Shown here piece after piece: positions 1,624 through 41,429 of a stretch of DNA of 64,000 nt. How positions within the stretch are numbered: position 1 is the first letter of the stretch; each line of letters starts with the position of its first letter. The notes below the pieces were generated by a model. It did not search any database and was not told where the DNA came from. It worked only from the letters and a program-made list of their open reading frames with translations. The translations under genes and the position numbers were made by a program. Origin of the DNA: Tubulanus polymorphus (taxonomy: Eukaryota > Animalia > Nemertea); contig NC_134033.1 of NCBI RefSeq assembly GCF_964204645.1, positions 5,852,231 to 5,916,230 on the forward strand, written 5' to 3'.

Positions 1624-2260
1624 CTACGGGACATTGATGCCTCGGGGTGTGTTCGTGTCGAGTCGTCGTTAACTATCCAGTCTTGTTCGGCTGCTTCGCG
1701 GATCGGTCTCGTCGAGCCTGGTAGGTGTGGGAGACCGTACACACGAAAGTGTTGGTGGGTATGGTCGACCTGGTTGAAGTGGTTCGAAAATGGAGTCGAA
1801 TTCTTCTTTCTGATGCGTGAGACGTGATGTGTGACGCGTTCTCGTAGAGACATTCCAGTTTGGCCGACGTACAGCATGTTGCACTTGGTGCATTCGATGC
1901 AGTATATAATTTCACGGGTCGCGCAATTAATTGTCCTGCGGATCGCGTGCATTTTGTTGTGGCTGCGGCAAACGGTTGTTTCTTGGATGAGGGGACACGT
2001 ACGACATCTCGGTGTTCCGCATTTCTTGGTGCCTCGACGTCGGGTTGACGGAGTTCTTTGAGTAGACCTAGAAATAGAAGAATTGGAAACAACGGAAGTA
2101 TTTCGGATAAGATGCGTTGAAGAGGGGACTCGGGGAGGGGGTGGCTCCGTGGGTTTGAGCTGCGACGAAGTTAGGAGATCTATGAGACTCTTGTGCTTGG
2201 TGTAGACGGTAACCGTGGTTACCTCGTCCGAGCGGCCAGTGGCCGTGTTGTGGAGAAGTT
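1624..2260 (-). pseudogene. Penelope-like GIY-YIG endonuclease and linker
   Basis: YTKHKSLIDLL, CGTPRCRTC, NCATREIIYCIECTKCNMLYVGQTG, HFNQVDH, E..WI, PRGIN (after a frameshift). Confidence 0.9.
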
Positions 2261-2303
2261 TAGTAGTTTAGATAAATGTACGGAAGCTGGAGCTCATGGC
2301 CAC

Positions 2304-2938
2304 TGTTGTTATTGCCAGATAAACCGCGTTGATGCGTACGTAATAAATAAACATAAATAGAAGTAATATAAATAAACAAGTCTCGAACTGACGTATGTGT
2401 CTACGTAGGTAAACCTAATATGGCGCGGCAATGAGCTCTGTTGAGTGCAAAAGGGTATTTATAGATAATTGTGACGTGTGCAGATACGTCATCACCCCTA
2501 CATGGATGGGAGGAATGTTGTGACGTATGAATGCGTCACAATCCATGAATTCCAAGCCATGTGTGGAAAAGGGCCTGCACACGTTACTAAAGATAATATA
2601 ATATAAAAGGGTTTAAGGAAGCTTTAGGGGGAGGCTGGGGAGAGAGCTCCGAGGAATGATCTTGTATACATCTGGAAAGAGGAAATAAAGGAAAGATATC
2701 TTTAGAAATTGTAAAGTTATATCCGGGAGCCATGTAAGAATGTCAAGACCAAGGACTGGGATCTGACCTAAGAGAGTGTCCCTCGCAACATCGTCGAGAG
2801 GAATTATTACCACAACGCTAGTTGGACAACCCAGCCCGGATTCACAGCACTGGTAGATATACGCGACCATAACATTGGTGGAGAATCCATCACCACAACA
2901 GCCGTAGCCAGTTCCGTAAACCTGGTTCGGATGTTACA
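2304..2938 (-). mobile_element. Probable LTR fragment inserted between RT and endonuclease
   Basis: Minus strand starts TGTAACA, has TATAAATA, ends ACAACA and is followed by a TGG PBS-like start; non-coding; no TSD found. Confidence 0.55.
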
Positions 2939-2940
2939 GG

Positions 2941-3457
2941 CTAGGGTTCGGTTGGCTTCGGTTGGCTCCCCTTTTTCGGGGGTTCGTTGGCCCGTTGCTG
3001 TTCTCGTTCGACGTGGTGCCGTAGAGCTTTGCTTTTGATGTGACGCAGTTCGCGGTCTTTGTAGCCACGACCTCTGAGAACTTTAAGGACGGTTCCGGAC
3101 GCTGCGTGTAGGTCCAAATCGTTATTGCAGATGCGCCGGAACCTGAGAATTTGACTTTTAACTATACCGGAAAATCTGTGCCGAGGGTGAAACGAAGATC
3201 GATGTAGTAATTGATGCGAATCGGTTGGTTTAAAGTAGACTTTGATGTCTGTTATACCACTTGTTTCGAATCGCGGGCCTTTGAAAGTGTTCACGTCCAG
3301 GAAGTTGACGCGGGTGTCGCTGATTTCGAACTTGAGTTTGATGGATCGGCTCACTGTTTCTAGGACGTCGATGAATTCCATCAACGTTTCGCGGCAGTGT
3401 TCCCAATCCATGTAGATATCATCGATGAACCGAGCGTATAGCGGTGGTTGGAGTGCG
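2941..3457 (-). pseudogene. Penelope-like RT, C-terminal half
   Basis: RFIDDI, VNFLDV, YFKPTDSHQLLHRSSFHP, SQILRFRRIC, RGY. Confidence 0.93.
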
Positions 3458-4008
3458 AGTAATTGGAAGATGTGGGTTTCATACCAGAGGACGAGAGGAC
3501 GAGACACCCCTCATCACCACAAGTAATTTTTTTTCCTAATAAATGGGAGACAGTGAGTTCCAACTAGAAAACAATAATGTCAATAAAAATCAATATTATT
3601 GTCAATATTGTAAAAAATACATCGATACATCTAATAAAACACGACATGAAAAAACTGCAATTCATATAAAAAATGTAATAGATTTTGAAACTCCAGAAAA
3701 TTCCAATGAAAGAAAAGAACGATTAGAAAATATGAATGTGGATGAAATAAAATGTGAAGTTTGTAACGAATTTATAGTAAAAAGGAATTATAATAGACAT
3801 CTCGAATCACAAAAACATTATAAAAATTTAAATAAAAATGTTTTAGGATTAGAATATTTTGATAATAAACCTCAACAAGTAAAAGAATCAACTTCAAAAA
3901 CAAAATCCATTTCAAATAAACCTTTCATGGAAAATGTTAGAAATTATATTGATTCACTAGAAATAAAAGATACAATTGAAATCTTAGAAACATTACATAG
4001 TAAAATTG
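3458..4008 (+). repeat. Left terminal inverted repeat of the Maverick (includes the polymerase 5' end)
   Basis: 3458-3626 and 3918-4008 match the reverse complement of 20076-20335. Confidence 0.9.
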
Positions 4009-7000
4009 GTCCTGCAGCTATTATATTTAGATTTTTTAAAGGTACAACAATAGAAGATTATAGTAAATTTAATGAAATAATAGAAAAAATACTAGATTTG
4101 ATAACAGATGTTGAATATCCAAAAATTAGTATCTCTAGGAAAGTAAGTTTTATAAAGTCAGAAGAAAAAATGAATTATAATATTCAAACACACTCTGAAG
4201 AAATAATTTCAAAAACACAAATAAAAGAGAAGTTAGAAAAAATATTGAATGAATTTAAACGTCATATTGAAGAAAGATATTTTGAGGCTTCTGGTTTAAC
4301 ATTGAATGAAATTATATATTTAGATTTAAATGTTTATAATACAAAAAGAAATAAAACATCAAAAAGTAATAAAATGTTTAAAAATAATTCAAACTTTATA
4401 ATAGAAAAAGATATGAAAGCATCAAGTTATATTAAATTACCATTTTTATCAAAAGCAATTATAAATGTTCAAAATGAAGACAACAAATGTTTTCTGTGGG
4501 CGATTATAAGTTGCTTACACCCAACAGAAGATATGACACATAGTTTTAGAATAACAAATTACCGGAAATATGAAACATTATATAAAATTGATCAATATCC
4601 AGTAACTATAAAAATGATTCCTAAAATAGAAAAAGTAAATAATTTAAAAATAAATGTATTTGAATTAATACAATTACCAAAGACAAAAGGTGAAAATATT
4701 AAAGATTATACATTGGAAGCTTTATATTTAACAGAATATTATGATGATGAAAATGCTATAGATTTGTTATATTACAAAAAAGATGAAAATGAACATTATA
4801 TGTGGTTAAAACAAATTGATTTATTCTTTAGAACAGAAAGTGATCATCATCGTAAAATTTATCTATGTAGAAAATGTTTATCTAAATTTATGACTGAGAA
4901 TACATTATTAAAACATAAAGAATTATGTGATAATAAAGATTTTTGTAAATTAATAATGCCAACAGAAAAAGATTATAAATTGAAATTTACTAATCATAAA
5001 TTTAAGAATATTGTTCCATTTGTAATTTATGGGGATTTTGAATCGTTGAATAAAGAATTAACTGATCAAGATAGAAAAGAAATATATAACAAAAAGCAAT
5101 TATTAAAATCAATGGATAAAGGAAGTGAATTAAATGAAGATATAATTCAAGACCCACCAATTATAAATACAATTAAAAAAGTTCATCAAAGAGCTGCTGC
5201 TTATGGAATTTATATAAAATCAAATTATCCCGAATTATATGAAAGTCAATATATTTCTTTTAGAGGTGAAAATGTAGTTAATGATTTTTGTGATAAAATT
5301 ATTGAATTAGAAAGTGATTTTGCAAAATTATTAAACAAAAATAAAAGAATAGTTATGACAAAAGAAGATGAAATTGATTTTAATTATGCAACTCATTGTT
5401 GTTATTGTGAAAAACGTTTTTATTCATTTGATAAAAGAGTTAGAGATCATGATCATTTAAATTCAAAATATCGTGGAGCTGCTCATGAAGATTGCAATTT
5501 ACAAGCTAAAAAAGTAAATTTCGTACCAATATTATTTCATAATTTATCAGGATATGATACCCATCTATTTATAAAACAATTATCGGGAAAATTGGGTGCA
5601 ATTAATCAAGAAATAGAAGAATATAATGCTATAAATGAAGCAAATGTAAGAAAATATGATTTTAAACTATTAGCTAAAACATCTGAAAATTATATTTCAT
5701 TTCAATTTGGTTGCATTAGATTTTTAGATTCTTATAGATTTCTAGCAAGTTCATTAGATAATTTATCAAAAAGTTTAGTTGATAATGATTTTATTATAAC
5801 TCGATATTATTATCCAAATGACCAAGATTTTAAATTATTGAGATATAAAGGCGCAATTCCTTATCCATTTTATAAAACACATGATGATTTTAATGTAACC
5901 GAATTATTAAAAGATCAATTTTATGATAAATTAAAAGAGGAGTATGTGAAAGACGAAGTTTTTGATAGAACATTAAATATTTGGAACCATTTTAAGATGA
6001 AAAATCATGGTGAATTAGTTGATTTATATTTAAAATCAGATGTTATGATATTGGCTGACATATTTGAAAAGTTTAGAGAAGTTAATCTAAACCATTTTAA
6101 TGTTGATCCTTGTTATTGCTACTCTAGTCCTGGTTTAACCTGGCAATGTGGTTTAAAATATACAAATGTAGAATAAGATTTATTAAAAGAACCAGATATG
6201 GTTTTATTATTTGAAAAATCAATTAGAGGTGGAATTAGTGGTGTTATGGGAGATAGATATTTTAAAGCAAATGATGAATATAAATTATTATATATTGACG
6301 CCAATAATTTATATGGTTGGGCAATGATGCAACCTCAACCATATAAAAATTTTATATTAACAGAAGTTGAAAATGATGATAAAACTGATTGGGAAAGCGC
6401 AATTATTAGTTTAAAAGATGAAGCACCAATTGGTTATTTCTTTGTAGTTGATTTAGAATATCCTGAAAATATAAAGTTTAAAACAAGAAACTTACCTTAT
6501 TGCCCAGAACATTTAACTGTAGATGATAGTTATTTAAGTGAATACCAGAAGAAAATAAAACCGAAAGATCATGTTTTTACAGAAAAATTAATACTTACTC
6601 AAAATAATAAATACAATTATATTGTTCATTATAGAATGTTAAAATTTTATCTAAAACAAGGAATGAAATTAAAGAAAGTACATAGATATATTGAATTTAA
6701 TCAATCGAAGTGGTTAGAAAAATATATAGATTTCAATACTCAACAGAGAACAATATCAAAAAATGATTTTGAGAAGGATTTTTTTAAGTTAATGAACAAT
6801 GCATTTTATGGAAAAACATGCGAAAATATTAGAAATAGAAATGATATTGAATTAGTGAATAATTATGAAAGATTAAGGCATTTACAATCAAGTCCTAGAC
6901 ATCTAGGAAATAAAAGATTTGAAGATTATTTAACAGCAGTAAAATTAAAAAGAACATCTATGAAATTTAATAAACCAATATTTATAGGTTCAACTGTTTT

Positions 7001-8605
7001 AGAAGTTTCAAAATTATTAATGTATGATTTTTATTATAATGTTTTGCAACCACTTTTTGGGGAAAAGCATATTGAAATATTATATTTTGATTCTGTAACA
7101 GCTGACACCCCAATATTATTAAAATGTAATAATAAAATATTGGTAAGAAGAATTTCAGAAATAATTCCAAAACAAAATGAATTTCATATGGTGAAAAAGA
7201 ATTAATACAAATAAATGGATTAATGGATGTTTGGACAAGAAATGGATGGAAAAAATTAAATAATATTATTAGACATAAAACAAATAAGAAAATCTATAGA
7301 GTTAGAACTAAATTAGGATTTGTAGATGTTACAGAAGATCATAGTTTAATTAAACAAAATGGTGATGAAATAAAACCAACTGATATAAAAATTGGAGATG
7401 AATTATTACATAAAAGATTTTACCCAAGAATGAATCATATGTCATTTGATGAAATAATTGATAATATTTATAATATAGAACCCGAAACATTGGAAGAAAA
7501 AGAATATTTTATCAAAGGATTTTTCATGGGTGATGGTTCAGCAGGTGTGTATAAATATGTTTGGGGCAATAAATATTGTTGGTACTTATGCAATCAAGAC
7601 TTAAAATTATTAGAAAGAATTAAGAAATTCTGTGAAGAAGTTTATCCAAATAAAATATTTAGAATCATGGATCATATGAAATCATCCGCTGTTTATAGAA
7701 TATTTGTAAATAATCCTAAAGATTTTGCTACAAAATATAATGATGAATTCTATATTCATGCAATAGTGAAAAGTAATACTTCAACAAAAGAAAAGATAGT
7801 TCCAGATTATGTATTAAATGCAAAAAATAATTTAAGAAAATGGTTCTTCATTGGATTCTATGCAGCAGATGGTTCAAAAAGTTTCCAAAACCGCAAAACA
7901 ATATCCTTTGCTCAAAAAGGAAAAGTTGCTATATCAGGATTGAATATATTATGTAATTCATTAGGTTTCAATATGAATATTGGGTTGATTAAATCTAAAC
8001 CAAATTGTTTTAATTTAAGGCATGTAGAAAAAGAATTAACAGAAGAAGTTAAAGATTTATTTGAAATATATAACCCAACTGACTATGTTTATGATTTATC
8101 AACAGATGATGGAACATTCAATTCTGGGTTCCCATTAATCCAAAAAAATACTGACAGTTACATACCAAAAATAAAGACAAATGATATAACAAAAGACTTA
8201 AAAACATTAAAACATTATTTTGATTTTAGCAATTACCCCAAAGATCATGAATTGTTTAGTAATGATAATAAAAAGATTCCTGGTAAGTTTAAAGATGAAT
8301 TAGGAGGTGATGAAATGATTGAATTTGTTGGTATAAGAAGTAAAATGTATAGTTATAGAACAAAAGATCATGAAGCTAAAAAGTTAAAAGGAATAACAAA
8401 ACATGTGGTTGATAAACATATAGAATTTCAAGATTATATAAAGTGTTTATATAAATCAATTGTAATGAAACACAAAATGAATTGTTTAAGATCAGAAGAT
8501 CATGAGATGTACATTAATGAAGTTGAAAAAACTAGTTTAAATCCAATTGATGATAAAAGGCATATTTTAGATGATGGTATAAAAACATTACCTTATGGCT
8601 ATTAA
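3543..8605 (+). pseudogene. polB: Protein-primed family B DNA polymerase with N-terminal Zn fingers, OTU-like segment, EndoVII-like insert and intein; one nonsense codon and one frameshift
   Basis: ExoI YGDFES, ExoII FHNLSGYD, ExoIII YLKSDV, motif A YIDANNLYG, motif B KLMNNAFYGK, motif C YFD/TDS split by the intein, KLKG. In-frame TAA at 6174-6176 and a 1-nt loss near 7182-7184 split it into three ORFs. Confidence 0.96.
7092..8149 (+). other. Intein with LAGLIDADG homing endonuclease (~353 aa after frameshift repair) in PolB motif C
   Basis: LYFD|SVTADTPILL (block A), VDVTEDHSL (block B TxxH), FIKGFFMGDG and FFIGFYAADG (LAGLIDADG), YVYDLST (block F), LIQKN|TDSY (terminal Asn, +1 Thr). Removal restores YFDTDS. 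Confidence 0.95.
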
Positions 8606-9903
8606 AACATAAAATCAATATCATCATACTCGAAATCATTATTAGCTTCTTCATTTTCATTTAATTGTTCAGGTTCTTCTTCCATTCCATTTTTCTCATT
8701 TAAATAAAGTTCTATCTTGTTCCACATTTCATTTCGCTCTCTTTGTTTCTTTTTGTTTGTTAATTCATCAAATGGAATTATAATATCTAGGTTTAAATAA
8801 TTTACAATCTTATTTAAAAAGAATTCATAATTTATTGAATCTGTTATTCTATTTTCCAAATGATACATTAATATTTGTTTAAATATTTTTTTTATATTTT
8901 CCATATCTTCTTCTGTTAATTTAGGTTTTTCATAATAATCGTTAAATAATAAATATAAATACATTTTCTTTTCTTTTGTGTTAAATGTTGGTGGAATAAT
9001 TGTTTTTATAATATCTTTTTTAGTTATTTCACCATTTTTATTTTCTATTATTTTCATTTTTTCAAGCCATTGTATATATTCTGGTGTATGATCTTCTATA
9101 GAAAATATTTTAAAAATTTCATCAAGATAATTTAATTTTGGATCTATGAGAAAATCTCTAGTTTTTTCTTCACCCCATAAATTCTTTTGCCATCCACAAT
9201 CAACACAAAATAACACAGTACCTTCTTGTCTTAAGGTCGCATAAATACATTGTGGGCATTTTTGTTTATAATTTATTAGTAATAGATCTTCATTAAGCTC
9301 TTGGTATTTTCTTATGTTTTCTTTATGTTTTATTGTTCTATTATGTAGATTTAAATTACTTGTTGTAATAATCAATTTACAATATTTACAATAATATGTT
9401 TTTCTTGTTAATTCATTATATTGTTTTTCTAACTTTTCAATTGTTTCTTCATTATCTGGTAACGTTTTCTCATATTTTATTTTTTCTAATAAATTATTTT
9501 TTCTTTCATTGAATTCAGTTTCAAATTTATTAGAAATTTTATCTATATGTGCTTTACAAAATTGATGATTCTCCCAATCTTCTATATTGTCAGGGCTATA
9601 TTTTACTTGACAAGGCTCACAGAAATTATTCTTTACATTATTCTTGTTATAAAATAAAAAAGGTTTTTTCCAAATAACTTCAGGTTCAACTTCAGCAGAA
9701 TTACTATCAACATTAGCCATTGCGCCATTAATTCTACACTTCTCTGAATGTTTTTTAACATAATTTCTTGAGAATAATTGATTACATTTTGGGCAGTTTA
9801 TTTTAGGGGGTTTATAATTTTCATCATGTTTTTTCATATGTCGAGCCTTATTACTTTTTCTTAGAAGTTCACCACAAATTTCACATGCTATCTTCTCTTC
9901 CAT
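8602..9903 (-). CDS. Multi-zinc-finger protein of the Maverick
   Basis: 433 aa with five CxxC groups plus His ligands (CEIC..H, CPKC..H..C, CEPC..H..H, CKYC..H..H, CPQC..CVDC); acidic C-terminus. Confidence 0.85.
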   Translation of the reverse strand: MEEKIACEICGELLRKSNKARHMKKHDENYKPPKINCPKCNQLFSRNYVKKHSEKCRINGAMANVDSNSAEVEPEVIWKKPFLFYNKNNVKNNFCEPCQVKYSPDNIEDWENHQFCKAHIDKISNKFETEFNERKNNLLEKIKYEKTLPDNEETIEKLEKQYNELTRKTYYCKYCKLIITTSNLNLHNRTIKHKENIRKYQELNEDLLLINYKQKCPQCIYATLRQEGTVLFCVDCGWQKNLWGEEKTRDFLIDPKLNYLDEIFKIFSIEDHTPEYIQWLEKMKIIENKNGEITKKDIIKTIIPPTFNTKEKKMYLYLLFNDYYEKPKLTEEDMENIKKIFKQILMYHLENRITDSINYEFFLNKIVNYLNLDIIIPFDELTNKKKQRERNEMWNKIELYLNEKNGMEEEPEQLNENEEANNDFEYDDIDFMF

Positions 9904-9971
9904 TTATTTAAGAAAAATTTTATTAAAATTAATTTTTAGTGATGAGCGGTAATTTTTTTATGTTATAAATA

Positions 9972-10730
9972 ATGGTAGAATTAAAAGAATACAGAATATT
10001 TATAGATTCTAGAAGGCTTACAAATTATAAATCACATAATTTACTAGTACAATTAGACAGAGAATTCAAAAATTGTGTAGATTTAAAATTAGTAAATATA
10101 AGTTTATGTAATTCTTTTTACAATATATCGAATAAAACTATTGAACATAATACTTTTTTAATTCATATTAGAAGTATAAATAAATGGTTTAATCTATTTC
10201 TAAGACCAGGATTATATAATTTAGAAACATTATCTCAAGAAATTAATCGTAGAGCACGATTAAAACTTAAAAGTGAAGATAAATTTTTAATAAGATTTAT
10301 AAAAAGTGATAGTTCTGGTAAAATTAAAATAAAGTTAGATGATGAAAACAAACATGCATTTATGGTAAAAAAACCTATAGCTAAATTGCTAGGAATTGCA
10401 CCAGATATTGTTACAGGAAACGTAGAAGGTATTTCAAATATAATACCTTTTACACACTTTTATATTTATTGCAATTTAATCGATCCTACAAAAACATTCG
10501 AAGCAACTAAAGATATAACTTGTAATTCTGGTTTACTAAACATTTTACCATTGAAGAATGTTAAAGAATTTGGAACGCAAATAAATTATAATTTAACAGA
10601 ATGTGATTTCAAACCATGCATTCCTCGTTTTAATAATTTTAGATTAGAAATTAGAAATCATAATGGATACTTAATTGATTTAAATAATTTCCCTGTAATT
10701 TATGAATTAGTTATAAGATGTAGAGAGTAA
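9972..10730 (+). CDS. Minor capsid (penton) protein
   Basis: IFIDS, NSFYNI, PGLYN, YIYCNLI, LNILPL and IRNHNGYLIDLNNFP resemble Polinton penton motifs. Confidence 0.8.
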   Translation: MVELKEYRIFIDSRRLTNYKSHNLLVQLDREFKNCVDLKLVNISLCNSFYNISNKTIEHNTFLIHIRSINKWFNLFLRPGLYNLETLSQEINRRARLKLKSEDKFLIRFIKSDSSGKIKIKLDDENKHAFMVKKPIAKLLGIAPDIVTGNVEGISNIIPFTHFYIYCNLIDPTKTFEATKDITCNSGLLNILPLKNVKEFGTQINYNLTECDFKPCIPRFNNFRLEIRNHNGYLIDLNNFPVIYELVIRCRE

Positions 10731-10745
10731 TTTTTCACTATATAA

Positions 10746-11087
10746 ATGAATATAACTGTTGGACCGAGTATATGTTTTGGGTTTGATTTTAAACATGGTA
10801 AAGAAATGAGAATTAAACTAAATGATGTAATTACTGATATAAAAAGTAAATCATTTAACAATGCATCAATGATTGATAAAGAAAAGTATAATATAGAAAA
10901 AGTAATTGATTTAATTAAATCACCTTTAGAATATTATGAATTAAATGAAGATGGAATTATTGATGATATTAAAAACATATTATCCAAAATATATGATAAT
11001 CATAAAACTAGTAATGAAATAAATGTTGAAATAATCATAAATAAGATAACTAAATATTTTGATGATAGTAATTTTTTTGATAAATAA
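10746..11087 (+). CDS. Hypothetical Maverick protein
   Basis: 113 aa, TAAATG start, within the tightly packed gene array. Confidence 0.7.
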   Translation: MNITVGPSICFGFDFKHGKEMRIKLNDVITDIKSKSFNNASMIDKEKYNIEKVIDLIKSPLEYYELNEDGIIDDIKNILSKIYDNHKTSNEINVEIIINKITKYFDDSNFFDK

Positions 11088-11309
11088 ATGAGTGATAATA
11101 AGTGGATAATAACTGGATTATATAATGGCGCATTACTATCAGTTGGAACTGTTGGTTATTCAATGGTATTAAAAAAAGTTTTCAAAATGGGAAGTGTTAA
11201 TGTTGATAGATTTGATATAAATGATATTTTGAAATTAACGTTAGCAGTTACTTTATCTAATTTAACTATTGATTATTTGGAAAAACAAAAATATATTCCT
11301 CCCATATAA
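11088..11309 (+). CDS. Small hydrophobic Maverick protein
   Basis: 73 aa with two hydrophobic segments, TAAATG start. Confidence 0.75.
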   Translation: MSDNKWIITGLYNGALLSVGTVGYSMVLKKVFKMGSVNVDRFDINDILKLTLAVTLSNLTIDYLEKQKYIPPI

Positions 11310-11333
11310 ATGTATAATTTTTTTGTTAAATAA

Positions 11334-11756
11334 ATGGCTTCTGCAATTATAACTATTATAGGATCGGCAATTGTTAACGCTTTAGCATTTACTGGTGGTG
11401 GTTATTTATTTAAACATATTGATAAAAATAGTTCATTAGGAGAACAAAGAAGACATAACTTAGCATTAGAGAAATATAATAAAGCAGCAGAAGAATATAG
11501 AGAAAAGAGGCAAAACTATATGGATTATATTAACAAAGAATTATATGATCAGAAGATTTCACATAGAGATTTTCAATCAGTTGATGATGCAATGAGTTTA
11601 TATAACGCGGTAACCAATAAAGAAAAATTACATCTATACAAACCTAAATTATCAGATTATTATACCCCAAGTAAAGAACAACAGAAATATGAAATAATAT
11701 GGATTTTAGGTGGAACAGTTATAGTTATATTTGTTGCTTATAAGTTTACTAATTAG
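11334..11756 (+). CDS. Maverick membrane protein
   Basis: 140 aa; hydrophobic N-terminus, central helical region, C-terminal TM (IIWILGGTVIVIFVAY). Confidence 0.8.
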   Translation: MASAIITIIGSAIVNALAFTGGGYLFKHIDKNSSLGEQRRHNLALEKYNKAAEEYREKRQNYMDYINKELYDQKISHRDFQSVDDAMSLYNAVTNKEKLHLYKPKLSDYYTPSKEQQKYEIIWILGGTVIVIFVAYKFTN

Positions 11757-11775
11757 TAATTTTTTTGCTAAATAA

Positions 11776-12210
11776 ATGGAAGATAAAGTTGATAGTATTG
11801 ATATTATTCCTCATGATATAAATAAAACTAAATTAAAAATATATTTAGAAAAACAAATATTAGAATTTGAAAGTGACTTAAAGATAAAAAAGAAAAAATA
11901 TTTAAAAATTAAAATTATATATTATTTAATTATAAGTGGTTCGGTTACAATTAGTTCTGTAATAACATTTCTAGCAATATTCAGTCCATTAACACCTTTA
12001 GCTATATCAATTGGTGTGTTAGGATTAAGTTCAAGTGTTTTAACTGGTATAAGTTCAAAATTAAATATAAAAAGTAATAAAGAAAAAATAAAATCTAATA
12101 TAAAAGAAATTAATAAATTAAAGAATACACTAGATTATATAATCAGTTTAAATGGTCATATAACAGTTGAAGAACAAGATAAATTATTAAAAGAATTAAT
12201 AAATTATTAA
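11776..12210 (+). CDS. Two-TM Maverick protein
   Basis: 144 aa; two adjacent TM-like stretches flanked by Lys-rich helices. Confidence 0.78.
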   Translation: MEDKVDSIDIIPHDINKTKLKIYLEKQILEFESDLKIKKKKYLKIKIIYYLIISGSVTISSVITFLAIFSPLTPLAISIGVLGLSSSVLTGISSKLNIKSNKEKIKSNIKEINKLKNTLDYIISLNGHITVEEQDKLLKELINY

Positions 12211-12226
12211 TTTTTTAGTTATATAA

Positions 12227-13615
12227 ATGGTAGATAGTTTTCCAAAAGCTTTCCAATATAATAAATCAATTAAATATAATATTCCAGCAATAGATTTTAA
12301 TAAAGATATTACATATAGAAATGAAGTTTTAGATTCATTAACTAATTTAGAAATTTATGTTACTGAAACTAATAATTTTAATGCAAAGATGGAAAATATA
12401 TTTCATGTATATTTAATTAATTTTAAAAAATTGAAAGATGAAAAACAATGGTTATTAAAATCTAATATGAAGTATTGGCAGAATCAATTAAATTTTGCTG
12501 TTTATTGTGCAACAACAGGATGTGGAATTAGTTGGAATGATCATTTGAATAATTCTAAATATAAACTAATTCAAAGTTTATTTAGATTTCATACATACTT
12601 TCAAATCAGAATAATATTAAATGAATTAGAGTGCGCTTTACCAGGATCTAGATATTTTAAAGAATTAGATAATAATATTAATTTATCTAAGTTTTATAAA
12701 ATTTGCAATGAATTTAATATAGATATAAATAATTCTGATTTTAGAACAAAAATTGGAACAATAAGATCACTTCCTTGCCCTAGAAAGATTGCAGAATATT
12801 GTGCACTTCCTATACCATCTAATAATTTTTATAATATCTATAATAAAAAATTAGGTTATGGTAAAATAGAAACAAAGGATTTAGAAACATTAAATTTCAA
12901 TAAATTACCAAAATTTTATGATAATTTAAAACAAGAAAACAATAATGGTTGGGTTTATTTTATTTTAGAAAATAGTGAAGGTTTTACAAAATCAGGTATA
13001 GAAAGAATAAATCAATCTATTAGAACTTATTTGATTTGTATTCTAGGATCACAAGTTGAAACAAGATCCCCGATAATTGGAAATTTGAATACATCATTCG
13101 ATACACAAAAACAATTTAAAGTTTTATTTGAAGATTCAATTCATAATGATAAAAATAGATCGATTCCAGAAAACATTATAAGATATCAAAATTATTTAGA
13201 TAAATCTCATGTAAGACTTAATTATTGTATAGGCCCTAATCTATTAATTATTTCTAATGATTTAGTATTGAAGATGGGAAACATAATTGGTTATAATAAT
13301 CTAATTAAAACTGCAACAATAAATAATTCATTTGGATTAAATGATATAAATAAAAAGATTATTACTGCTCCAAAATTAATGGAAGGTGAAAAAAATAAAA
13401 AACACATTCAATCAACAGAAACTAAAACTAATAATATTAAATTAAATAATGATTCCAAAATAAAAGATTACAATACTACAGAAAATATAAAAACTGATAA
13501 AATTCAACATGATATAATTAAACTAAATGATGATAATAAATCACATGAAAATACTAAATTAGCTATAACTTGTATAGGAATTGTAATCGGAGGAATATTA
13601 TATTTTAAATTTTAA
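12227..13615 (+). CDS. Hypothetical Maverick protein with C-terminal anchor
   Basis: 462 aa intact ORF; WQNQLNFAVYCATTGCGIS block; C-terminal TM (LAITCIGIVIGGILYF). Confidence 0.82.
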   Translation: MVDSFPKAFQYNKSIKYNIPAIDFNKDITYRNEVLDSLTNLEIYVTETNNFNAKMENIFHVYLINFKKLKDEKQWLLKSNMKYWQNQLNFAVYCATTGCGISWNDHLNNSKYKLIQSLFRFHTYFQIRIILNELECALPGSRYFKELDNNINLSKFYKICNEFNIDINNSDFRTKIGTIRSLPCPRKIAEYCALPIPSNNFYNIYNKKLGYGKIETKDLETLNFNKLPKFYDNLKQENNNGWVYFILENSEGFTKSGIERINQSIRTYLICILGSQVETRSPIIGNLNTSFDTQKQFKVLFEDSIHNDKNRSIPENIIRYQNYLDKSHVRLNYCIGPNLLIISNDLVLKMGNIIGYNNLIKTATINNSFGLNDINKKIITAPKLMEGEKNKKHIQSTETKTNNIKLNNDSKIKDYNTTENIKTDKIQHDIIKLNDDNKSHENTKLAITCIGIVIGGILYFKF

Positions 13616-13631
13616 TTTTTTTATTATGTAA

Positions 13632-15098
13632 ATGGATGTAGAAGGTGGAGAAGATTATGAAATGGGAGAAATGGGAAATAATAATGAAGGATATATTGAT
13701 GATGAACCACAACCCGATTTTAATGAAACTAATATTGATAATGATGATGAATCAGCATATAATTCTAATTTAGCAGATAGTGGTTCTAAAGGTCAATCAA
13801 CAGATGAATTTGATAGAAGAACTAGATCGAGAATAAATCCTGAAAATGAAAATCCAGATTTAGTAAAACAAAATTTAGAATATAATGAATATATTTATAA
13901 TTTCAAACCTATATTTGAAAAATCAGGATATAATATCAATGCTAGAGGCGCCAGACTTTTAGTACAAGAATTAAAATCTTTAGATGGTGAATATTATTAT
14001 CATTTGAAAGATGATTATTATATTGATATCTCTTATAAAAAACAAAACAAAATATTAGCAGAATCAACTTTGCTTAAGTCTGACTCATTACTATCTAGAA
14101 TTAAAAGAATAAGAAATAGTAATGAAATAGAAGATGTAACACAAGAAGAAATTATTAAAAATGAAAGAGTATTTAAACAAAGAATTAATGAATTATTTGA
14201 AACAATCGATAATAATTTAGAAACAGAAACAAGTTCTGAACAGAATATAACTTCCAAAACTAGTAAACTTAAATCAAACACTGAAGTTCAAACTGAAAAA
14301 CTTTTACCGAATGGATTACTTGATGCAACAGATCAAGAAATAGAAGCTTTAAGTATGTTTTCTAAAAAAACAATTAGAGAAATAATAAGTATACGAGATG
14401 AAGCTGATAAAATTGCTCGCGAAAAACATATTAGATATAATAAAATTAAACCTTTAGAAAATAAATTATTTGACACCAGAAAAGAATTAGAACAATTAAA
14501 ATTAGATAGAGAATTTAAAGTTATTGAAGAAATTGAATTTAAAAAAAGAAATGCATATTTAGAAAAAGAAATTGATGATTTAGAATATAACATAGAATTT
14601 CAGAAAGAAAAAATGAAACTATTATTAAAATCATACGATTATTGTATTAATAGATTAAAAGTTGTTGTTAAAGAGTTAATACTAAAACCAAATTCTGACA
14701 TATCACTAAAAGATAGAATAAAATTATTATTTAAGTTTGAAGGAATAACAGTTCTTTCAATTCTAACAGCTGTAACTATGGTATTTACAACAATTGGTTT
14801 AGCAATATCAAATGCTTTAAAATCTACTCCTACTCCAAACAAACCAGATAAACCTCCGGGAAATAATTCTATACAAGATAAAGTTAAGGATGGTTTAAAG
14901 AAATTAGCAAAATATTTATGGGAACTATCAAAGAAATCTGCTGCAGCTTTACCAGGAGTTATTGCATCAATTGTTGGTTTTGTTTTAAAATCTGCAGGTA
15001 ATATTCTTAACTTTGCTGCTGAACATATTATTTTATTTTTAATCACAGTTGTAAGTGCTATTATTTTTGGTTTAGTAAACATGATAAAAAATAAATAA
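13632..15098 (+). CDS. Coiled-coil protein with several C-terminal hydrophobic helices
   Basis: 488 aa; acidic N-terminus, long heptad-like region, three hydrophobic segments around a Pro-rich hinge. Confidence 0.82.
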   Translation: MDVEGGEDYEMGEMGNNNEGYIDDEPQPDFNETNIDNDDESAYNSNLADSGSKGQSTDEFDRRTRSRINPENENPDLVKQNLEYNEYIYNFKPIFEKSGYNINARGARLLVQELKSLDGEYYYHLKDDYYIDISYKKQNKILAESTLLKSDSLLSRIKRIRNSNEIEDVTQEEIIKNERVFKQRINELFETIDNNLETETSSEQNITSKTSKLKSNTEVQTEKLLPNGLLDATDQEIEALSMFSKKTIREIISIRDEADKIAREKHIRYNKIKPLENKLFDTRKELEQLKLDREFKVIEEIEFKKRNAYLEKEIDDLEYNIEFQKEKMKLLLKSYDYCINRLKVVVKELILKPNSDISLKDRIKLLFKFEGITVLSILTAVTMVFTTIGLAISNALKSTPTPNKPDKPPGNNSIQDKVKDGLKKLAKYLWELSKKSAAALPGVIASIVGFVLKSAGNILNFAAEHIILFLITVVSAIIFGLVNMIKNK

Positions 15099-15121
15099 TT
15101 AATTTTTTTTTTGTTAAATAA

Positions 15122-16369
15122 ATGAGTGGGAGTTATATAAGTCCTTCTAAGATTTCTAGAATATCTAATGCTATTAAAGCAGAAAGATCACATCATATAA
15201 TTACTCATAACCCTTCAAATATTAATCCCGATGAAACTTTATACGTTAGAATCCCTCGATTAACACAAAATACTTTTTATGTTCCAAACAGTATTTATTT
15301 ATCAGCCGATATAAAAGTAATCGGTAATAATAATAATTATGTCGTTGATAATGTTGGAAGATATTTGATTAAAAAGTTAACAATAAAGATTGGTCCAGAA
15401 ACAGTTTTCTCATTAGATGATTATAATTTATTTATGCACTATAAAGATTTATGGTTAACTAAAGAAAACAGAAATAATATGATATTTCAAGGAATCCAAT
15501 CAGAAAACCAAAATAAATTAAGATCAGAAGCTAATAGCGCAATATTAACAAATGATGTAGATAAATTGATAAAAAGTATATATGGAAGCAAATATAAAAT
15601 TCCATTAGATTTTGAATTGATAAATAATAATGCACCTTTATATAAATACGCAATTCAAGAAGATATTATATTTGAGATAACATTTGCTCCTGTAAATGAA
15701 ATTGTAATATCTAGCGTTAATAAAGATATGAGTTATAAATTATCGAATATATGTTTAGAATATGATACAGTAACTGATGAAAATATTGCTAGAACAATTC
15801 AAACTCAATATAATCAAGGATTTTCATTATTATATGATTATATTGATAAATTTAAAACTGTAACTATTAATGCAAATGATGAAATAATAAATGAGAATAT
15901 TAACTTCCCAAGAAGATCTATTAAAGGTATATTAATATTTTTTACTATTGGAACGTATACTAATGGCGCAATAAATGTTGACAATTATTATAATCCTGAA
16001 ATAACAAAAGTAGAAATAACTATCGAAGGAATAGCAAATAAAATATTTTGTCAAGGAATGAGAATGATAGATCAATGGGTAGAAATTAAAAAACATTTTA
16101 TGAATGAAAAAGTAAAATCATTTGAAAATTGTAACATTAATCAAATTGATTATTATACTGGTAATAAATATGCATTATGGTTAGATTTTAGAACAACTGA
16201 AGATAACTTATTACATGGTTCTGGAAAAAAACTACAAAATACAAAAGATGGAATACAATTATTCATGACAAAGAAAAAGGGAATCAAAAATTTTAAAATG
16301 CATATTTATATTATATCTGACGCGCAATTAAATATTGTAAATTCACAATTAGATAGTATTCAATATTAG
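15122..16369 (+). CDS. Major capsid protein (double jelly-roll, probable)
   Basis: 415 aa, beta-rich, intact; HNPSNINPDETLYVRIP and ALWLDFRTTEDNLLHGSG resemble invertebrate Polinton-like capsid proteins; size and context fit. Confidence 0.8.
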   Translation: MSGSYISPSKISRISNAIKAERSHHIITHNPSNINPDETLYVRIPRLTQNTFYVPNSIYLSADIKVIGNNNNYVVDNVGRYLIKKLTIKIGPETVFSLDDYNLFMHYKDLWLTKENRNNMIFQGIQSENQNKLRSEANSAILTNDVDKLIKSIYGSKYKIPLDFELINNNAPLYKYAIQEDIIFEITFAPVNEIVISSVNKDMSYKLSNICLEYDTVTDENIARTIQTQYNQGFSLLYDYIDKFKTVTINANDEIINENINFPRRSIKGILIFFTIGTYTNGAINVDNYYNPEITKVEITIEGIANKIFCQGMRMIDQWVEIKKHFMNEKVKSFENCNINQIDYYTGNKYALWLDFRTTEDNLLHGSGKKLQNTKDGIQLFMTKKKGIKNFKMHIYIISDAQLNIVNSQLDSIQY

Positions 16370-16399
16370 AAATATAAAGTTAAAATTAAGGATATATAA

Positions 16400-17527
16400 A
16401 TGGGAGGTAAAAAAACTCCTAATACTAAAGAACAATATTTAAGAAATTTATATTACAACCCTGAGAGTTCGGTTGCTTATTCTTCTACTAAAAATATATG
16501 GTGTAAAGTAAAACAAGATAAATTAGATAAGATAATCCCACAAAATTTAGTTAAATATAAAGATATAAATGAATTTATGTTAGAACAACCAACGTATACA
16601 ACACATAAAAAAATTGTTAGAAAATATAAAACTCGTAAAACTATGGTAAGTTATGTAGATCAACAGTGGCAAGGAGATTTAATTGATATGAAAAATCTTA
16701 AAAAAGATAATAATGATTATTGGTGGATATTGAATATAATTGATATTTTTAGTCGTTATGTATGGAGCTTCCCACTTTATAGAAAAGATGCTGCACAAAC
16801 ATCACATGTTTTAAGAAAATTTCTTTCAGGTGGAAAACTAAAACCAGAAAAAATTCAATTTGATGATGGAAAAGAATTTGATAATTCATTAGTTCATGGA
16901 CTTTTAGATTTTCATAATATTGAATATTTTTCAACAAAATCGGATAAAAAAGCAGCAGTTGTTGAACGATTTAATAGAACATTGAGAACAAGAATATCAA
17001 AATATTTCACAGCAAATAATACTTATAAATGGATTGATGTTTTACCAAAATTTATAGAAGGATATAATAATTCTTATCATTCTTCTATTGGAATGAAACC
17101 TATTGATGCTAGAAAACCTGAAAATGCTGAAATTGTTTGGAATAATTTATATGGAGCATTTCTTGTAGATGATTTTGGTGAACCTAAATTTAAAGTTGGT
17201 CAAAATGTTAGAATTTCTAAGTATAAAAAGATATTTGACAAAGGATACGATCGAAATTTTACTAGAGAAATATATAAAATAAAAAAGGTAATAACAACAA
17301 AACCATATGTCTATTAATTAGAAGATTTAGATGGTGAAGAAGTTGATGGCTACTTTTATGAAGAAGAATTAAGTTTAACTACTGAAAATCTAGAACAAGA
17401 ATATAAAATTGAAAAAGTATTAAAAACAAAAACTGTTAAAAGAAAAAAATATTCTTTAGTAAAATGGGTTGGATGGCCAGATAAATTCAATGAATGGATA
17501 TTATCAAGTAAAATTAAAAATATATAA
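16400..17527 (+). pseudogene. Retroviral-like (rve) integrase with C-terminal chromodomain; one premature stop
   Basis: WQGDLID, IDIFSRY, QFDDGKEF, VERFNRTL (DDE). Past TAA 17315-17317 the frame continues to YKIEKVL..LVKWVGWPDKFNEWI, stop 17525-17527. Confidence 0.95.
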
Positions 17528-18136
17528 ATGAATAAGGAATTATTTATATTTGAGCCTCATAATATGTTAATTTCTGGTGTAACAAATTGTGGAAAAACTT
17601 ATTTTATATTAAATTTACTAGAAACTGTTTACAAAAACTATTTTGATAATATAGTATTATTTTGTCCAACATATGAATTTAATCAAACTTATGATAGAAA
17701 TATTACTAGAAATAATAAATTTATTATATTAGATCCTAAAACAGTAAAAGAAAATTTAGATAATTGTATAAAAATAGCAATTGATATTTATAAAGGATCA
17801 AATACATTATTCATTATAGATGATTGTGCTAATCTACATGATTCAAAAGTTAGAGAAAGTGAGTTATGTTATTTAGCTTTCTCTGGTAGACATTTTTGGA
17901 TAACAACTTGGGTTTTAAATCAAGAATATAATTCAATTGTTAAAGACTTTAGAGAAAACATTAGATTTCTAGTTTTATTCTACAATAAAGATAGAAAATC
18001 GATGAAAAATGCACTTGAGGAAAATGATATTATTCCACATGATTTACATAATGAATATATGGATAAGTTGAAAAATATTAAAAGATCAAAATTACTATTT
18101 AGATTACAACACCCATTTAAATATGAATTTATTTAA
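17528..18136 (+). CDS. A32-like genome packaging ATPase
   Basis: Walker A GVTNCGKT, Walker B LFIIDD, GRH motif, LNQ. Confidence 0.93.
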   Translation: MNKELFIFEPHNMLISGVTNCGKTYFILNLLETVYKNYFDNIVLFCPTYEFNQTYDRNITRNNKFIILDPKTVKENLDNCIKIAIDIYKGSNTLFIIDDCANLHDSKVRESELCYLAFSGRHFWITTWVLNQEYNSIVKDFRENIRFLVLFYNKDRKSMKNALEENDIIPHDLHNEYMDKLKNIKRSKLLFRLQHPFKYEFI

Positions 18137-18390
18137 ATTCAACTAGCTTGTTAATCTAGTTGAATTCTAGTTATTGGTAGTTGTAACAAAAATCAAATAG
18201 ATTTAACAATATTTTAACTAGCTTGTTAATCTAGTTTAATTCTAGTTACATTCTAATTGAATTCTAGTTGTTAGTAGTTGAAACAAAAATCAACTAGAAT
18301 GTAACTAGAAATAAACAAAAACAACAATATTTCAACTAACTTGTTAATCTAGTTGAATTCTAGTTACATTCTAGTTAAATTCTAGTTGCA
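18137..18390. repeat. Internal non-coding array of direct and inverted CTAGTT/AACTAG repeats
   Basis: Three copies of ~AACTAGCTTGTTAATCTAGTTGAATTCTAGTTA plus inverted CAACTAGAATGTAACTAGAA at 18291. Confidence 0.85.
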
Positions 18391-18421
18391 ACATCACACA
18401 ATTAATTTTTTTGTTATATAA

Positions 18422-19028
18422 ATGGTAGGTGAAAAGAAAATAAAATCTAAAAATGGTGATGTTCCAATTGAAAAAACTTTAGATGATTTAGGAATAACAG
18501 AAACAAAATTAACTCCAGATGATGGTGCTTTAAATAATGTTACAACAAATAATAATTATGAATATTATCTTTATTGTAAACATCAATTAGAAATATTAGA
18601 ATAGCATCTGGAAAATGTAAAAATTTTGTTGGTAAAAATTTAACTTATAATGAATTAGACACAATGAAATCAGATGAAATTATTAGATTATTTAAGATTT
18701 ATGAAGCCGCGAGAACAGCTAGAATTAATGATGCGATATCAGAAAATGTAGTAAAAGGTTATGTAAATTATGTAATTATATACTACCAATTGAAAATGAA
18801 AATAGATTATATTCCGATTTAAAAAATGATTATTTAGTTATGACTGAATTAAATAAATGGATTGGATATTTATCATTTCAATTAGGTGGATTTATGACAT
18901 TATTATCAACTGGAGTTATAACATTTTCAAATATTGAAAGTAAAAATATTTCTATAATAAATGAGCGAGGTGAAAGAAGTGAAGGAATTAACTGTGAAGA
19001 AAAAACCGAGAACTCAGAAACAAATTGA
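18422..19028 (+). pseudogene. Frameshifted Maverick gene with C-terminal hydrophobic segment
   Basis: ORFs 18422..18604 and 18840..19028 are bridged by IASGKCKNFVGKNLTYNEL…; frameshifts near 18600 and 18775. Confidence 0.7.
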
Positions 19029-19329
19029 ATGGTCTCGACAATTAGGAATTAAATCACAAGAATATAAAAAAGCTGTAAAAGAAAAAATAAGTAATTAAAA
19101 TGTTAATAAAAATGGTGAAAATATTGTTATTTCTACTCCTTCTGATAGTAGAATATTTGATAAATATTTATATTTTACAGTTGGATTTGTAATTGTATTC
19201 ATTTTGATTGGGTGTAGTTGGTATAAGAAATCAAATAAAATTCATGATATTAGTAATTCTGAACCAACTGCTATCAAAAATGAAAGTACTTCTGAAATTC
19301 CAAAATTGACAATAAAAAAAAAGGATTAA
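18961..19329 (+). pseudogene. Basic single-TM Maverick protein with internal stop (not in ORF track)
   Basis: TAAATG start; MSEVKEVK…KISN*NVNK…YLYFTVGFVIVFILIGCSWYKK…; TAA at 19096-19098. Confidence 0.7.
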
Positions 19330-19507
19330 TATTTTAGAAAAAAAGCAAAAAAAATAATTTTTTTTAATTAATTGAATATCTCACTACTTTTGTCTATCAC
19401 TGTGTGGGTGCCGTTTATGGCACCATCTACGCGGAGCAATTAAATTGTCCAGATAAGTCATTTCGGATTCTAGATATTCATTATTTTTATTAATTCATTT
19501 TTTAAAT

Positions 19508-19834
19508 TTAATCAACAATTTCTAAATCATGATGGCCATCTTCATTTTTTCCATGATAGATTATTTTAAATCCTTCTAAATCTTTTAATTCCTCTGTACT
19601 CAATGAAACCCATTTATCGGGTAAAAACACTTTAAATTCTCGTGATGTACTAACATTACAGTAGCTTAAATTAGCTGATACTTTCTCTCCATATTTAGTT
19701 TTTATCTTTTCTAATTTCAATATTTTATGTTCAATTTCTTTTGTAACATCAACTAACTTTTTTATTTCAAATTGTTTTTTTGCTGGTTTTATTCTGTTAT
19801 TTATTGTTGCTAAGAATGCTTTTCTATCTCCCAT
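19508..19834 (-). CDS. Small Maverick protein, possibly OB-fold ssDNA-binding
   Basis: 108 aa with TKYG…VFLP…YHG pattern; shares its upstream motif with the polymerase; function is inference. Confidence 0.6.
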   Translation of the reverse strand: MGDRKAFLATINNRIKPAKKQFEIKKLVDVTKEIEHKILKLEKIKTKYGEKVSANLSYCNVSTSREFKVFLPDKWVSLSTEELKDLEGFKIIYHGKNEDGHHDLEIVD

Positions 19835-20075
19835 TTATAAGGAAAACAAATTACTTGTGGTGATGAGTGGGGATTACTTCCCCCTATATAACAAGCACGC
19901 TATTAACCGTTCTCACCCAAGCCTCACAGCATCTATTTATCTGGGTACAGTTGACACGCAATCACTGTACTACAGTAATAGCACACACATTAATAACCGT
20001 TCTCAGTAGAGACTCACTGTATCGATCTATCCACACACAGCTGTTGTTACACGCACTCACTGTTTATGTGTGTCA

Positions 20076-20335
20076 CAATTTTACTACGTAATATTTCTAA
20101 AATTTCAATTGTATCTTTTATTTCTAGTGAATCAATATAATTTCTAACATTTTCCATGTAAGGTTTATCGATGTATTTTTTACAATATTGACAATAATAT
20201 TGATTTTTATTGACATTATTGTTTTCTAGTTGGTGTTCATTCTCCCCCATTTATTAGGGGAAAAAATTACTTGTGGTGATGAGTGGTGTCTCGTCCTCTC
20301 GTCCTCTGGTATGAAACCCACATCTTCCAATTACT
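20076..20335 (-). repeat. Right terminal inverted repeat (lacks 291 bp relative to the left copy)
   Basis: ORF 20047..20250 reproduces the polymerase N-terminus (…YCQYCKKYID joined to KPYMENVRNY…). Confidence 0.9.
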
Positions 20336-21107
20336 AGTGCGCTTCTGGACAGACATTCTTTTTCCCATTCGGCTACAAAGATATTGGCATAAGAAGGAGC
20401 AAAATGCGTACCCATTGCGGTACCTTTTACCTGTAGATATGTATTTTCGTAAAAGTTTAAGTCGTTTTTCGTCAGGCTGATTTCTAGTAGTTTCAGCAGC
20501 TCGGCATCCGGGCGTCCCGGGTTCGGGTTATCTCGGAGAGCTTGTCGGATGCTGGCGATACCCTCTTCGCGGGGGATGTTGGTGTATAGCGAATCGATGT
20601 CCATGGTGACGAGAAACGTATCGGCGCTAAATTGTTTACCGGCCAAAATATCTAGAAAGTGGTTGGTATCTTTGACGTACGACGGTTGACTCCGGGCGAT
20701 CGGCTGCAAGTAGTAGTCGATCCATTCCGAAATTTTGTGGGGTATCCCTGGTTTGTTGAGCCAATTCGTGCGCGTCGTTACAGAACTCGGCGATTACTGG
20801 TTCTATTGTATCCGGAGCCCAACTGCTGGGCAAACGGAAACGCGGAGCCTCGCAGTCCGATTTCTCTCGGAAGTGATGGTGGAGTTTCACTAGCCGGTTG
20901 AATCAGCACACTCCCTTGGTGCGCTCGGTCGCGGCGGCATCAGAACTGATTTTCGGAGTCGGGCAATAGGTGAGGCCCTTTCGGAGTAACTGACGTTGCG
21001 CCGGACTTAGGCGGTGTGAACGTGTGAGGTTGACCACCGGGCTCCCGAGAGCGGTTACTGGATCGCATCGCGCTTGGTTTGGTGCCGGTTCGCCGTGTTC
21101 GTCGTAC
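20336..21107 (-). pseudogene. Penelope-like RT, N-terminal half (internal deletion, one TGA)
   Basis: VVNL…LLRKGLTYCPTP, SSWAP, ISEWIDYYLQP, SYVKDT, MDIDSLYTNIP, GTAMGT.FAPSYANIF; the DKG region is missing near 20730. Confidence 0.92.
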
Positions 21108-21191
21108 CTGGAAATGGAAGAAATAGAGAAACATTGGTTAATTCCGGTTGATTTAACTCACCAATAGCGGACCCGTTGGTCTCACTGATAC

Positions 21192-22632: not shown

Positions 22633-22865
22633 GCTGAACTAGGATTAAACACGGGTTTTGATACACGCAGCGCGCAGCAAGTGAAAGGTATTGAGTTAGA
22701 AGTTAAGTGACCATATGAGACCTTTTGATCTATACTAATTGTACTTCTGTGATCAAGCTAATAGACAAACTAGGGGTCTGACTAATTATGCCTTTGATCC
22801 TGAGTGACTAGAAAACAGCACAAATTATGGCCCTTGATCTAGCTGTTGAATAGTTTGCTTTGATG

Positions 22866-28574: not shown

Positions 28575-34261
<5,687 letters not shown>

Positions 34262-40829: not shown

Positions 40830-41429
40830 GATTCGCTACGACTAATAGTCTTGCAGGTGTGGACTGACTGGAGGTAATCCAGTGTAAATGAAATAATGTC
40901 GGTTTGTCGAAGCTCACAATTTATTTGTCATCATCTGATGAAAAATCAATTCTCAGATATTTCACATAGAATATAAATATGTATATATAGCCACATCGAA
41001 TACATGCGCTGTTCTCACAGTTAGTATTCAACTATAGCTGTAACAACTGGATTTACGATATAATAATTTTATGCACATTCATTTCCAGCCATGTCCATGA
41101 AAATGAGAAAATCATTCATCATTATAAGTGTAGGTTTTTATATATGGGGGACATTTGAAGCGATGAAGGAAAGGTGATATTTTTGAGTTCGGAACATGTC
41201 AAATAATATAGTTTTGATACACCAGTCACAATTCTCTCTTCAATCGTCAATTGTAAAATGTACTGATTGGTCCCTGGCGAGAGAACGTGTCCGTGCACAA
41301 CCCAACTATAAACTAGAAATGTCGAGACTGAGCAATAATTGATGATATATTTTTATTTACCTCGATAAGATCTCTATAAATTCCAGTGTTCAGAATTCCG
41401 TAAGACACAATCCAGATCCTAGCTCCCAA

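Follow-up and report, generated by a model that had tools for sequence, protein, structure and literature searches.

In the DNA stretch of 64,000 nt analysed here (the window), the polymerase gene of a Maverick/Polinton element is interrupted in its catalytic motif C. This raises the question whether the insertion is an intein, whether it moves among the copies of its host element and from where it was acquired. The reading preferred here, with a probability of roughly 0.7, is that of a pol-c-type intein in the polymerase motif of a Maverick, of which intact copies are predicted to splice and whose LAGLIDADG domain likely homes. The first-pass annotation had proposed an intein taken over from a co-infecting large DNA virus. 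Intein, Maverick context and the coexistence of filled and empty copies could be retained, whereas the viral direction was not fixed and the penultimate Lys, which had been called unusual, turned out to be no anomaly.

The Maverick element and its genomic setting

Terminal inverted repeats, a 6-bp target-site duplication and AG...CT ends are hallmarks of Maverick/Polinton elements. All of them were found in the window together with a protein-primed PolB (pPolB) gene, an rve integrase, an A32 ATPase and a likely capsid gene, in which the element resembles known Maverick/Polinton (adintovirus) elements. The following features were annotated:

3458..20335, no strand assigned: whole Maverick/Polinton element, 16.9 kb, about 23% GC, ends AG...CT, delimited by repeats, duplication and genes
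3452..3457, plus strand: left 6-bp target-site duplication, identical to 20336-20341
20336..20341, plus strand: right 6-bp target-site duplication, identical to 3452-3457
3458..3632, plus strand: left terminal inverted repeat, includes the polymerase start, pairs with 20161-20335 (175 nt, 94%)
3916-4008: second inverted-repeat block, pairs with 20076-20168 (96%)
20076..20335, minus strand: right terminal inverted repeat, recognised by pairing with the left end
3543..8605, plus strand: Maverick polymerase (pPolB) gene, 59% to P0001 (which matches DNA_pol_B_2, 5e-17) and 72-79% to P0188, P0190 and P0191
9972..10730, plus strand: virus-type ORF, possibly a minor capsid protein, matches unnamed viral clusters only
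15122..16369, plus strand: likely major capsid protein, ESM Atlas look-alikes at 0.97-0.98 including Capsid_N and DJR-like clusters, recognition score low
16400..17527, plus strand: retroviral-type integrase (rve, E 1.1e-8) with a stop at 17315-17317, then a chromodomain-like tail (tail judged by eye)
17528..18136, plus strand: A32-like packaging ATPase (Pox_A32, E 4.2e-13)
2941..3457, minus strand: downstream half of a split Penelope-like reverse transcriptase, frame resumes ...QPPLYARFIDD at the left end
20336..20793, minus strand: upstream half of the same Penelope-like reverse transcriptase, frame ends ...KECLSRSA at the right end

No Pfam match was obtained for the capsid candidate at 15122..16369, and none to a protease among the 17 ORF pieces searched. 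According to the available part of 10.64898/2026.06.19.733378, a cysteine protease is present in most of Maverick group 1, while group 2 is more variable.

The element landed in the reverse transcriptase of a Penelope-like element (1560-3457 and 20336-22640) that also comprises a GIY-YIG domain, located at 1560-2267 beside one reverse transcriptase half, and a GDSL/SGNH-like ORF. Host-side ORFs at 39873-40835, 31775-32536 and 61336-63676 were read as a rhodopsin-family GPCR, a MULE/ZSWIM transposase and a dynamin-like GTPase, respectively. An animal host is indicated by the rhodopsin-family GPCR and the other flanking ORFs. The named relatives of the polymerase are from a crinoid, a coral and a dragonfly.

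Within the element, 11 of the 12 ORFs examined (3543-19834) start in TAAATG, mostly after a run of T or A/T. The TAAATG pattern was counted 17 times in the element, compared to 4.7 on average and at most 14 in 200 shuffles, and we take such gene starts to resemble the poxvirus late promoter. As a putative promoter, they would fit the use of a large virus's transcription machinery; the literature search revealed no paper on TAAATG starts in Mavericks.

The insertion in motif C

The intein was read to occupy 7092..8149 inside motif C of the pPolB gene, with the N-terminal junction ILYFD/SVTADTP at 7091/7092 and the C-terminal junction GFPLIQKN/TDSY at 8149/8150 (a slash between residues marks the junction). 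The insert has a length of 1058 nt, which is not divisible by 3, and contains Ser1, TEDH, two LAGLIDADG motifs, YVYDL and a terminal Asn, followed by Thr+1. It was divided as follows:

7092..8149, plus strand: intein at the pol-c site of motif C (YFD/TDS), recognised by motifs, Pfam and PDB matches and an exact skip in 31 genomic reads
7092..7423, plus strand: N-terminal Hint part with Ser1 and block A at 7092 and block B TEDH at 7331-7342, frame break inside (TIGR01445, E 0.014)
7466..8032, plus strand: two-motif LAGLIDADG endonuclease domain with GFFMGDG at 7517-7537 and GFYAADG at 7853-7873, by Pfam match and by the match of the P0135 model to I-DmoI and PI-PfuI
8033..8149, plus strand: C-terminal Hint part with block F YVYDL at 8084-8098 and a Lys-Asn end, by motif reading

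Profile searches were based on the unaltered piece 7184-8149, and both the Hint and the LAGLIDADG profiles matched it, as the first-pass annotation had anticipated. The Pfam model Intein_splicing gave an E value of 3.7e-7 at 30.5 bits, which is under its cut-off of 35.8 bits, and LAGLIDADG_3 matched above its Pfam cut-off (E 1.2e-6). NCBIfam models of intein-bearing proteins also matched, and in the PDB the piece matched PI-PkoII (E 4.4e-6). The relative P0002 passes the Intein_splicing cut-off with 37.7 bits. When folded without an alignment, the window's own piece reached a pLDDT of 35; for the intact relative P0135, which is 48% identical to the window intein, the AlphaFold model has a pLDDT of 89.8. 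Its best structural matches are the inteins TliVMA, PI-PkoII and PI-PfuI (E 6e-18 to 9e-15) as well as I-DmoI, and among viral models the polymerases of a phycodnavirus, a pandoravirus and a megavirus. The Hint fold is thus predicted on the intact relative, and so is an I-DmoI-like fold with the two acidic-residue-bearing helices of a LAGLIDADG homing endonuclease.

Ser at 7092, Thr+1 at 8150, the TxxH of block B, the Asp of block F and the terminal Asn are those of a class 1 intein. We infer a class 1 splicing route that would use Ser1, the Thr and His of block B, Asn cyclisation and Thr+1. In class 1 inteins the penultimate residue is usually His, which is not obligatory; in the window intein it is Lys. 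Among 135 parsed relatives, 74 end in KN and 32 in HN, and the Mimivirus PolB intein (P0080) likewise ends in KN. For this reason the view of the Lys as an anomaly was rejected, KN being the commonest ending counted.

The site is that of a pol-c allele, YxD/TDS of PolB, and the closest relatives are inteins of the same site. Y-x-D before and TDS after the intein were found in all 135 parsed relatives, with the restriction that such flanks were demanded by the parser, by which 45 of 180 proteins were left unparsed. The closest intein-free polymerases P0188, P0190 and P0191, 72-79% identical to both exteins, read through the site without interruption as HIEIMYFD/TDSYILKIK; the exteins are therefore collinear and the insertion is precise, as the earlier interpretation would require. 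Junctions, motifs and the Pfam and PDB matches bear out the boundaries and motifs given in the first-pass annotation and confirm 7092-8149 as a LAGLIDADG intein in the pPolB of a Maverick.

The copy in the window carries several lesions. An in-frame stop at 6174-6176 in the polymerase gene had been overlooked before, the frame breaks near 7181 inside the intein, and the integrase ORF has an in-frame stop at 17315-17317. At the stop 6174-6176, 259 of 274 genomic reads of run X5 differ from the base of the window copy, and at the break, where a read check at 7182-7184 had been suggested, 105 of 199 contain bases that the window copy lacks. Since many or most reads differ at these positions, the polymerase stop and the frame break are atypical of the family. 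The break is a short deletion of more than one base. A loss of 1 nt near 7183 had been described earlier; a frame break is indeed present, but one base as the sole lesion was rejected in view of the longer deletion and the additional stop. On its sequence, the window copy is dead, a decayed insertion that can neither splice nor home.

Filled and empty alleles and their distribution

Intein-plus and intein-minus alleles, for which a search had been proposed, were both detected. In run X5, which consists of genomic reads with the same species label and of which about 12% was read, 31 reads from 21 start positions skip the intein exactly. In at least 24 further reads the intein is also missing but the bases next to the join differ; the two most frequent of these variant joins are synonymous for Thr-Asp-Ser. 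No RNA data set was among the listed runs that contain the sequence. The mean depth was 208 for the intein versus 387 for the exteins, a ratio of 0.54 that depends on divergence. From this ratio, roughly half of the similar copies carry the intein, a figure likewise affected by divergence.

Both allele types are also present in the P0002 cluster from another source (136 members, located on contigs of up to 1 Mb), where 7 of 15 listed members are filled, 6 are empty and 2 are fragments. Between filled and empty members, P0129 being excluded, 42% and 40% of the ten residues on either side of the site differ, versus at most 1% beyond ten residues upstream (about 99% alike). Further downstream the difference amounts to 13%, 8% and 4%. 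Filled alleles show 0% difference among each other within ten residues of the site, and empty alleles vary there, reading YFD/TDA, YGD/TDA or YTD/CDS. This site-centred divergence matches the pattern expected of homing with co-conversion and escape alleles. Among filled alleles the intein varies by 1.3% and the N-extein by 0.5%, and because the intein is the more variable part, a very recent sweep would fit poorly. The empty alleles P0127 and P0129 read YTD/CDS, in which Cys replaces Thr at +1 of motif C.

Homing of the intein among Maverick copies is strongly suggested by these comparisons, and the following course is proposed. In an intact copy, class 1 splicing of the precursor would restore the catalytic motif and yield an active polymerase, so the intein would cost little. 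Its LAGLIDADG endonuclease would cut intein-free copies of the polymerase gene, which would then be converted when the break is repaired with a filled copy as template, a few flanking codons being dragged along. This conversion might occur among integrated copies or during replication of the free genome. Empty alleles with changed site codons may resist cutting. Exchange with large DNA viruses would take place in shared cells, more likely from virus to Maverick. With filled, empty and recoded empty alleles at hand, a homing cycle and the resistance to it would become measurable within one eukaryote genome.

Beyond these alleles, 17 of 426 proteins gave a match to the intein profile as well as to that of the Maverick polymerase, and other sources contain intact Maverick polymerases with the intein. 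An extein tree of 85 N-exteins was calculated from a set gathered with intein-bearing queries, with 48 of 133 extein matches left out as near-copies or unparsed (P0181 among them). In this tree 7 N-exteins are from intein-bearing polymerases. Given the well-supported branches, 7 changes are needed, and shuffled labels require no more; the nearest polymerases of the window copy (72-79% identical) are empty. A comparison of intein and extein trees, as suggested in the first-pass annotation, gave a divided picture. Presence is patchy and one jump is indicated, whereas 6 of the 7 filled polymerases fall in one clade of 28 rows in which the intein tree mostly tracks the extein tree. Because of this shared clade and the largely parallel branching, an old acquisition with repeated loss and regain appears to fit best.

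The jump concerns P0004, which has the same intein (48% identical), placed within the Maverick intein clade, yet a polymerase without BLAST match to either extein, and this is evidence for a transfer between Maverick types. Judged by eye, the P0004 polymerase is of another Maverick type with a VSR-like stretch. The endonuclease part of the window intein is 61% identical to that of P0001, compared to 59% for the exteins, with both motif aspartates kept; domain and aspartates are retained across 47-61% identity.

Kinship with giant-virus inteins and competing explanations

In the homology search, four Maverick-type matches are followed by 116 homologues of which 115 are RNA-primed PolBs (DNA_pol_B). 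An alignment scan of IMG/VR returned giant-virus MAGs for 22 of the best 25 loci, at no more than 45% identity; IMG/VR scans with single proteins gave no match. The best identity among 80 metagenome loci was 45%, and full-length archaeal alleles are 24-28% identical to the window intein. Six loci (L081-L086) are contigs of prokaryote MAGs with viral-type pol-c inteins (33-41%) and may be binned viral contigs.

All trees were quick searches, and 24 of the 135 parsed inteins were left out of the intein tree set due to a length outside 300-420 aa or as near-copies. Eight Maverick inteins form one clade with a support of 99. In an LG+G4 tree rooted on archaeal inteins (1 of 46 loci left out), 8 of the 9 Maverick inteins are located outside the giant-virus group, and in a mixture-model tree (21 of 67 rows left out) the Maverick inteins are nested inside it with a support of 97. 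The AU test kept the 'outside' tree (p-AU 0.79), which has the higher score, as well as a single clade of all 9 Maverick inteins (p-AU 0.72). Since the root moved with the model and neither arrangement was rejected, the trees do not fix the direction of transfer. A firm nesting inside the giant-virus inteins was not upheld, and P0189 was dropped as a second independent invasion, the single clade of all 9 having survived the test. The large DNA virus named as the origin in the first-pass annotation is plausible, given that the most closely related inteins occupy the same site in giant-virus PolB.

On abundance and a shared C-terminal signature, a transfer from virus to Maverick is nevertheless judged somewhat the more probable course: inteins of this type are frequent and varied among RNA-primed viral PolBs but rare among Mavericks, and the ending FNxG[FY]PLI is found both in the main Maverick clade and in one subgroup of the RNA-primed PolB inteins. 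Maverick inteins could also be sister to, or the source of, the giant-virus pol-c inteins, which concerns the origin only and is compatible with homing. This is considered doubtful. Both trees kept by the AU test speak for it, whereas the branch to the archaeal outgroup is very long and thus prone to attract fast lineages, and abundance, signature and mixture model point the other way. An assembly chimera or a giant-virus contamination has a negligible chance and was rejected. Among the matches listed, no contig piece spans the whole stretch compared, but reads cover all of it in two studies, the element has a target-site duplication and splits the frame of a host retroelement, codon GC3 is alike in intein (0.15) and extein (0.13-0.15), and intact intein-bearing Maverick polymerases come from other sources.

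Two further explanations concern the endonuclease. If a real intein had been acquired once by the ancestor of the clade, then inherited and repeatedly lost, with homing ended in what are now old subfamilies, the broad agreement of intein and extein trees in the 28-row clade and an intein no less variable than the extein would be accounted for. This is unlikely in view of the endonuclease domain and its aspartates kept across 47-61% identity, the sharp peak of filled/empty differences on about 99% upstream identity and the jump of P0004 to an unrelated polymerase. Alternatively, the endonuclease might be kept for interference in addition to homing, by cutting the matching empty site in the PolB of a giant virus that co-infects as a helper. 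TAAATG starts were counted in 11 of 12 genes and, with their presumed likeness to the poxvirus late promoter, would fit helper-virus transcription; the site itself is also conserved in the PolB of giant viruses (PMC549080, in part). We regard such interference as very unlikely, since ordinary homing already explains the conservation and TAAATG is only a putative promoter.

An intein that is predicted to splice and likely homes remains the preferred reading. Its extension to a gene drive in animal Mavericks is put forward tentatively, with odds somewhat against it: a giant-virus-derived intein would convert dispersed germline or freely replicating copies, with escape by recoded target sites and jumps between unrelated Maverick polymerases. 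If true, this drive and the TAAATG starts would be the footprint of Mavericks that replicate alongside helper giant viruses, like virophages.

The YxD/TDS site and the allele type are known from Mimivirus (Ogata et al., 2005) and from archaea (PMC549080). As far as these sources are available, their pol-c inteins share with the window intein the site, a length of about 350 aa, Ser1/Asn/Thr+1 and two LAGLIDADG motifs. Identity to viral alleles is 28-44%, and the Lys-Asn end is common to the window intein and that of Mimivirus (P0080). Unlike in viruses and archaea, the host protein here is the pPolB of an integrating Maverick, likely in an animal nucleus, with filled and empty copies dispersed over a single genome. 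Inteins are also known from large DNA viruses infecting animals, such as Chilo iridescent virus (cited in PMC549080; Iridoviridae are tabulated in PMC5784728), so that inteins can function in viruses replicating in animal cells; those are neither integrated nor inherited through the germline. Excerpts of PMC5784728 state that inteins are absent from metazoan genomes.

HNH and VSR inserts were described in the pPolB2 of nematodes, oomycetes and molluscs (Jeong et al., 2023, PMC10748475), without the word intein in the accessible text, and excerpts of Krupovic et al. (2024, PMC11161782, citing PMC10748475) speculate that nuclease inserts in polinton polymerases stem from 'intein invasions'. Unlike those inserts, for which no splicing domain is described in the available part, the present one comprises a full Hint and LAGLIDADG unit inside a catalytic motif. 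Polymerase inteins in viral-like genes on nuclear scaffolds of Klebsormidium, Tetrabaena and Hondaea, and also Anaeramoeba inteins, are reported in the accessible part of PMC10710043, with viruses proposed as carriers. They are similarly virus-linked and in eukaryotic nuclear DNA, but belong to algae and protists, and 'polinton', 'maverick', 'animal' and 'metazoa' are absent from the main text. The word 'intein' is absent from the main text of PMC8502044, PMC11296320, PMC10120064 and 10.64898/2026.06.19.733378 and used in general terms only in PMC3671162 and PMC12220804. The literature search, with most subscription papers and Repbase outside its scope, revealed neither a Maverick nor animal nuclear DNA with a Hint-LAGLIDADG intein. 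An intein of an established allele type in a host of a new kind is therefore likely novel. Through the shared allele, Mavericks are connected with giant viruses, which is relevant to whether animal Mavericks are viruses that depend on helpers, and annotation pipelines would call intein-bearing polymerases broken or mis-sized.

Furthermore, several repeats were observed in the window. At the right end of the element a truncated copy of the polymerase start is located (region of 19824-19870 and 20047-20250), and the terminal 47-nt gene-start block recurs there a third time, in front of a small ORF (19834-19508) that it putatively drives. AT-rich direct and inverted repeats follow the ATPase gene at 18155-18388, with an 89-nt pair and hairpin arms of 41 nt. 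A second AT-rich patch at 34900-37300 was recognised as a decayed fragment of a related Maverick, with 81% identity over 165 nt to the ORF at 9972-10730.
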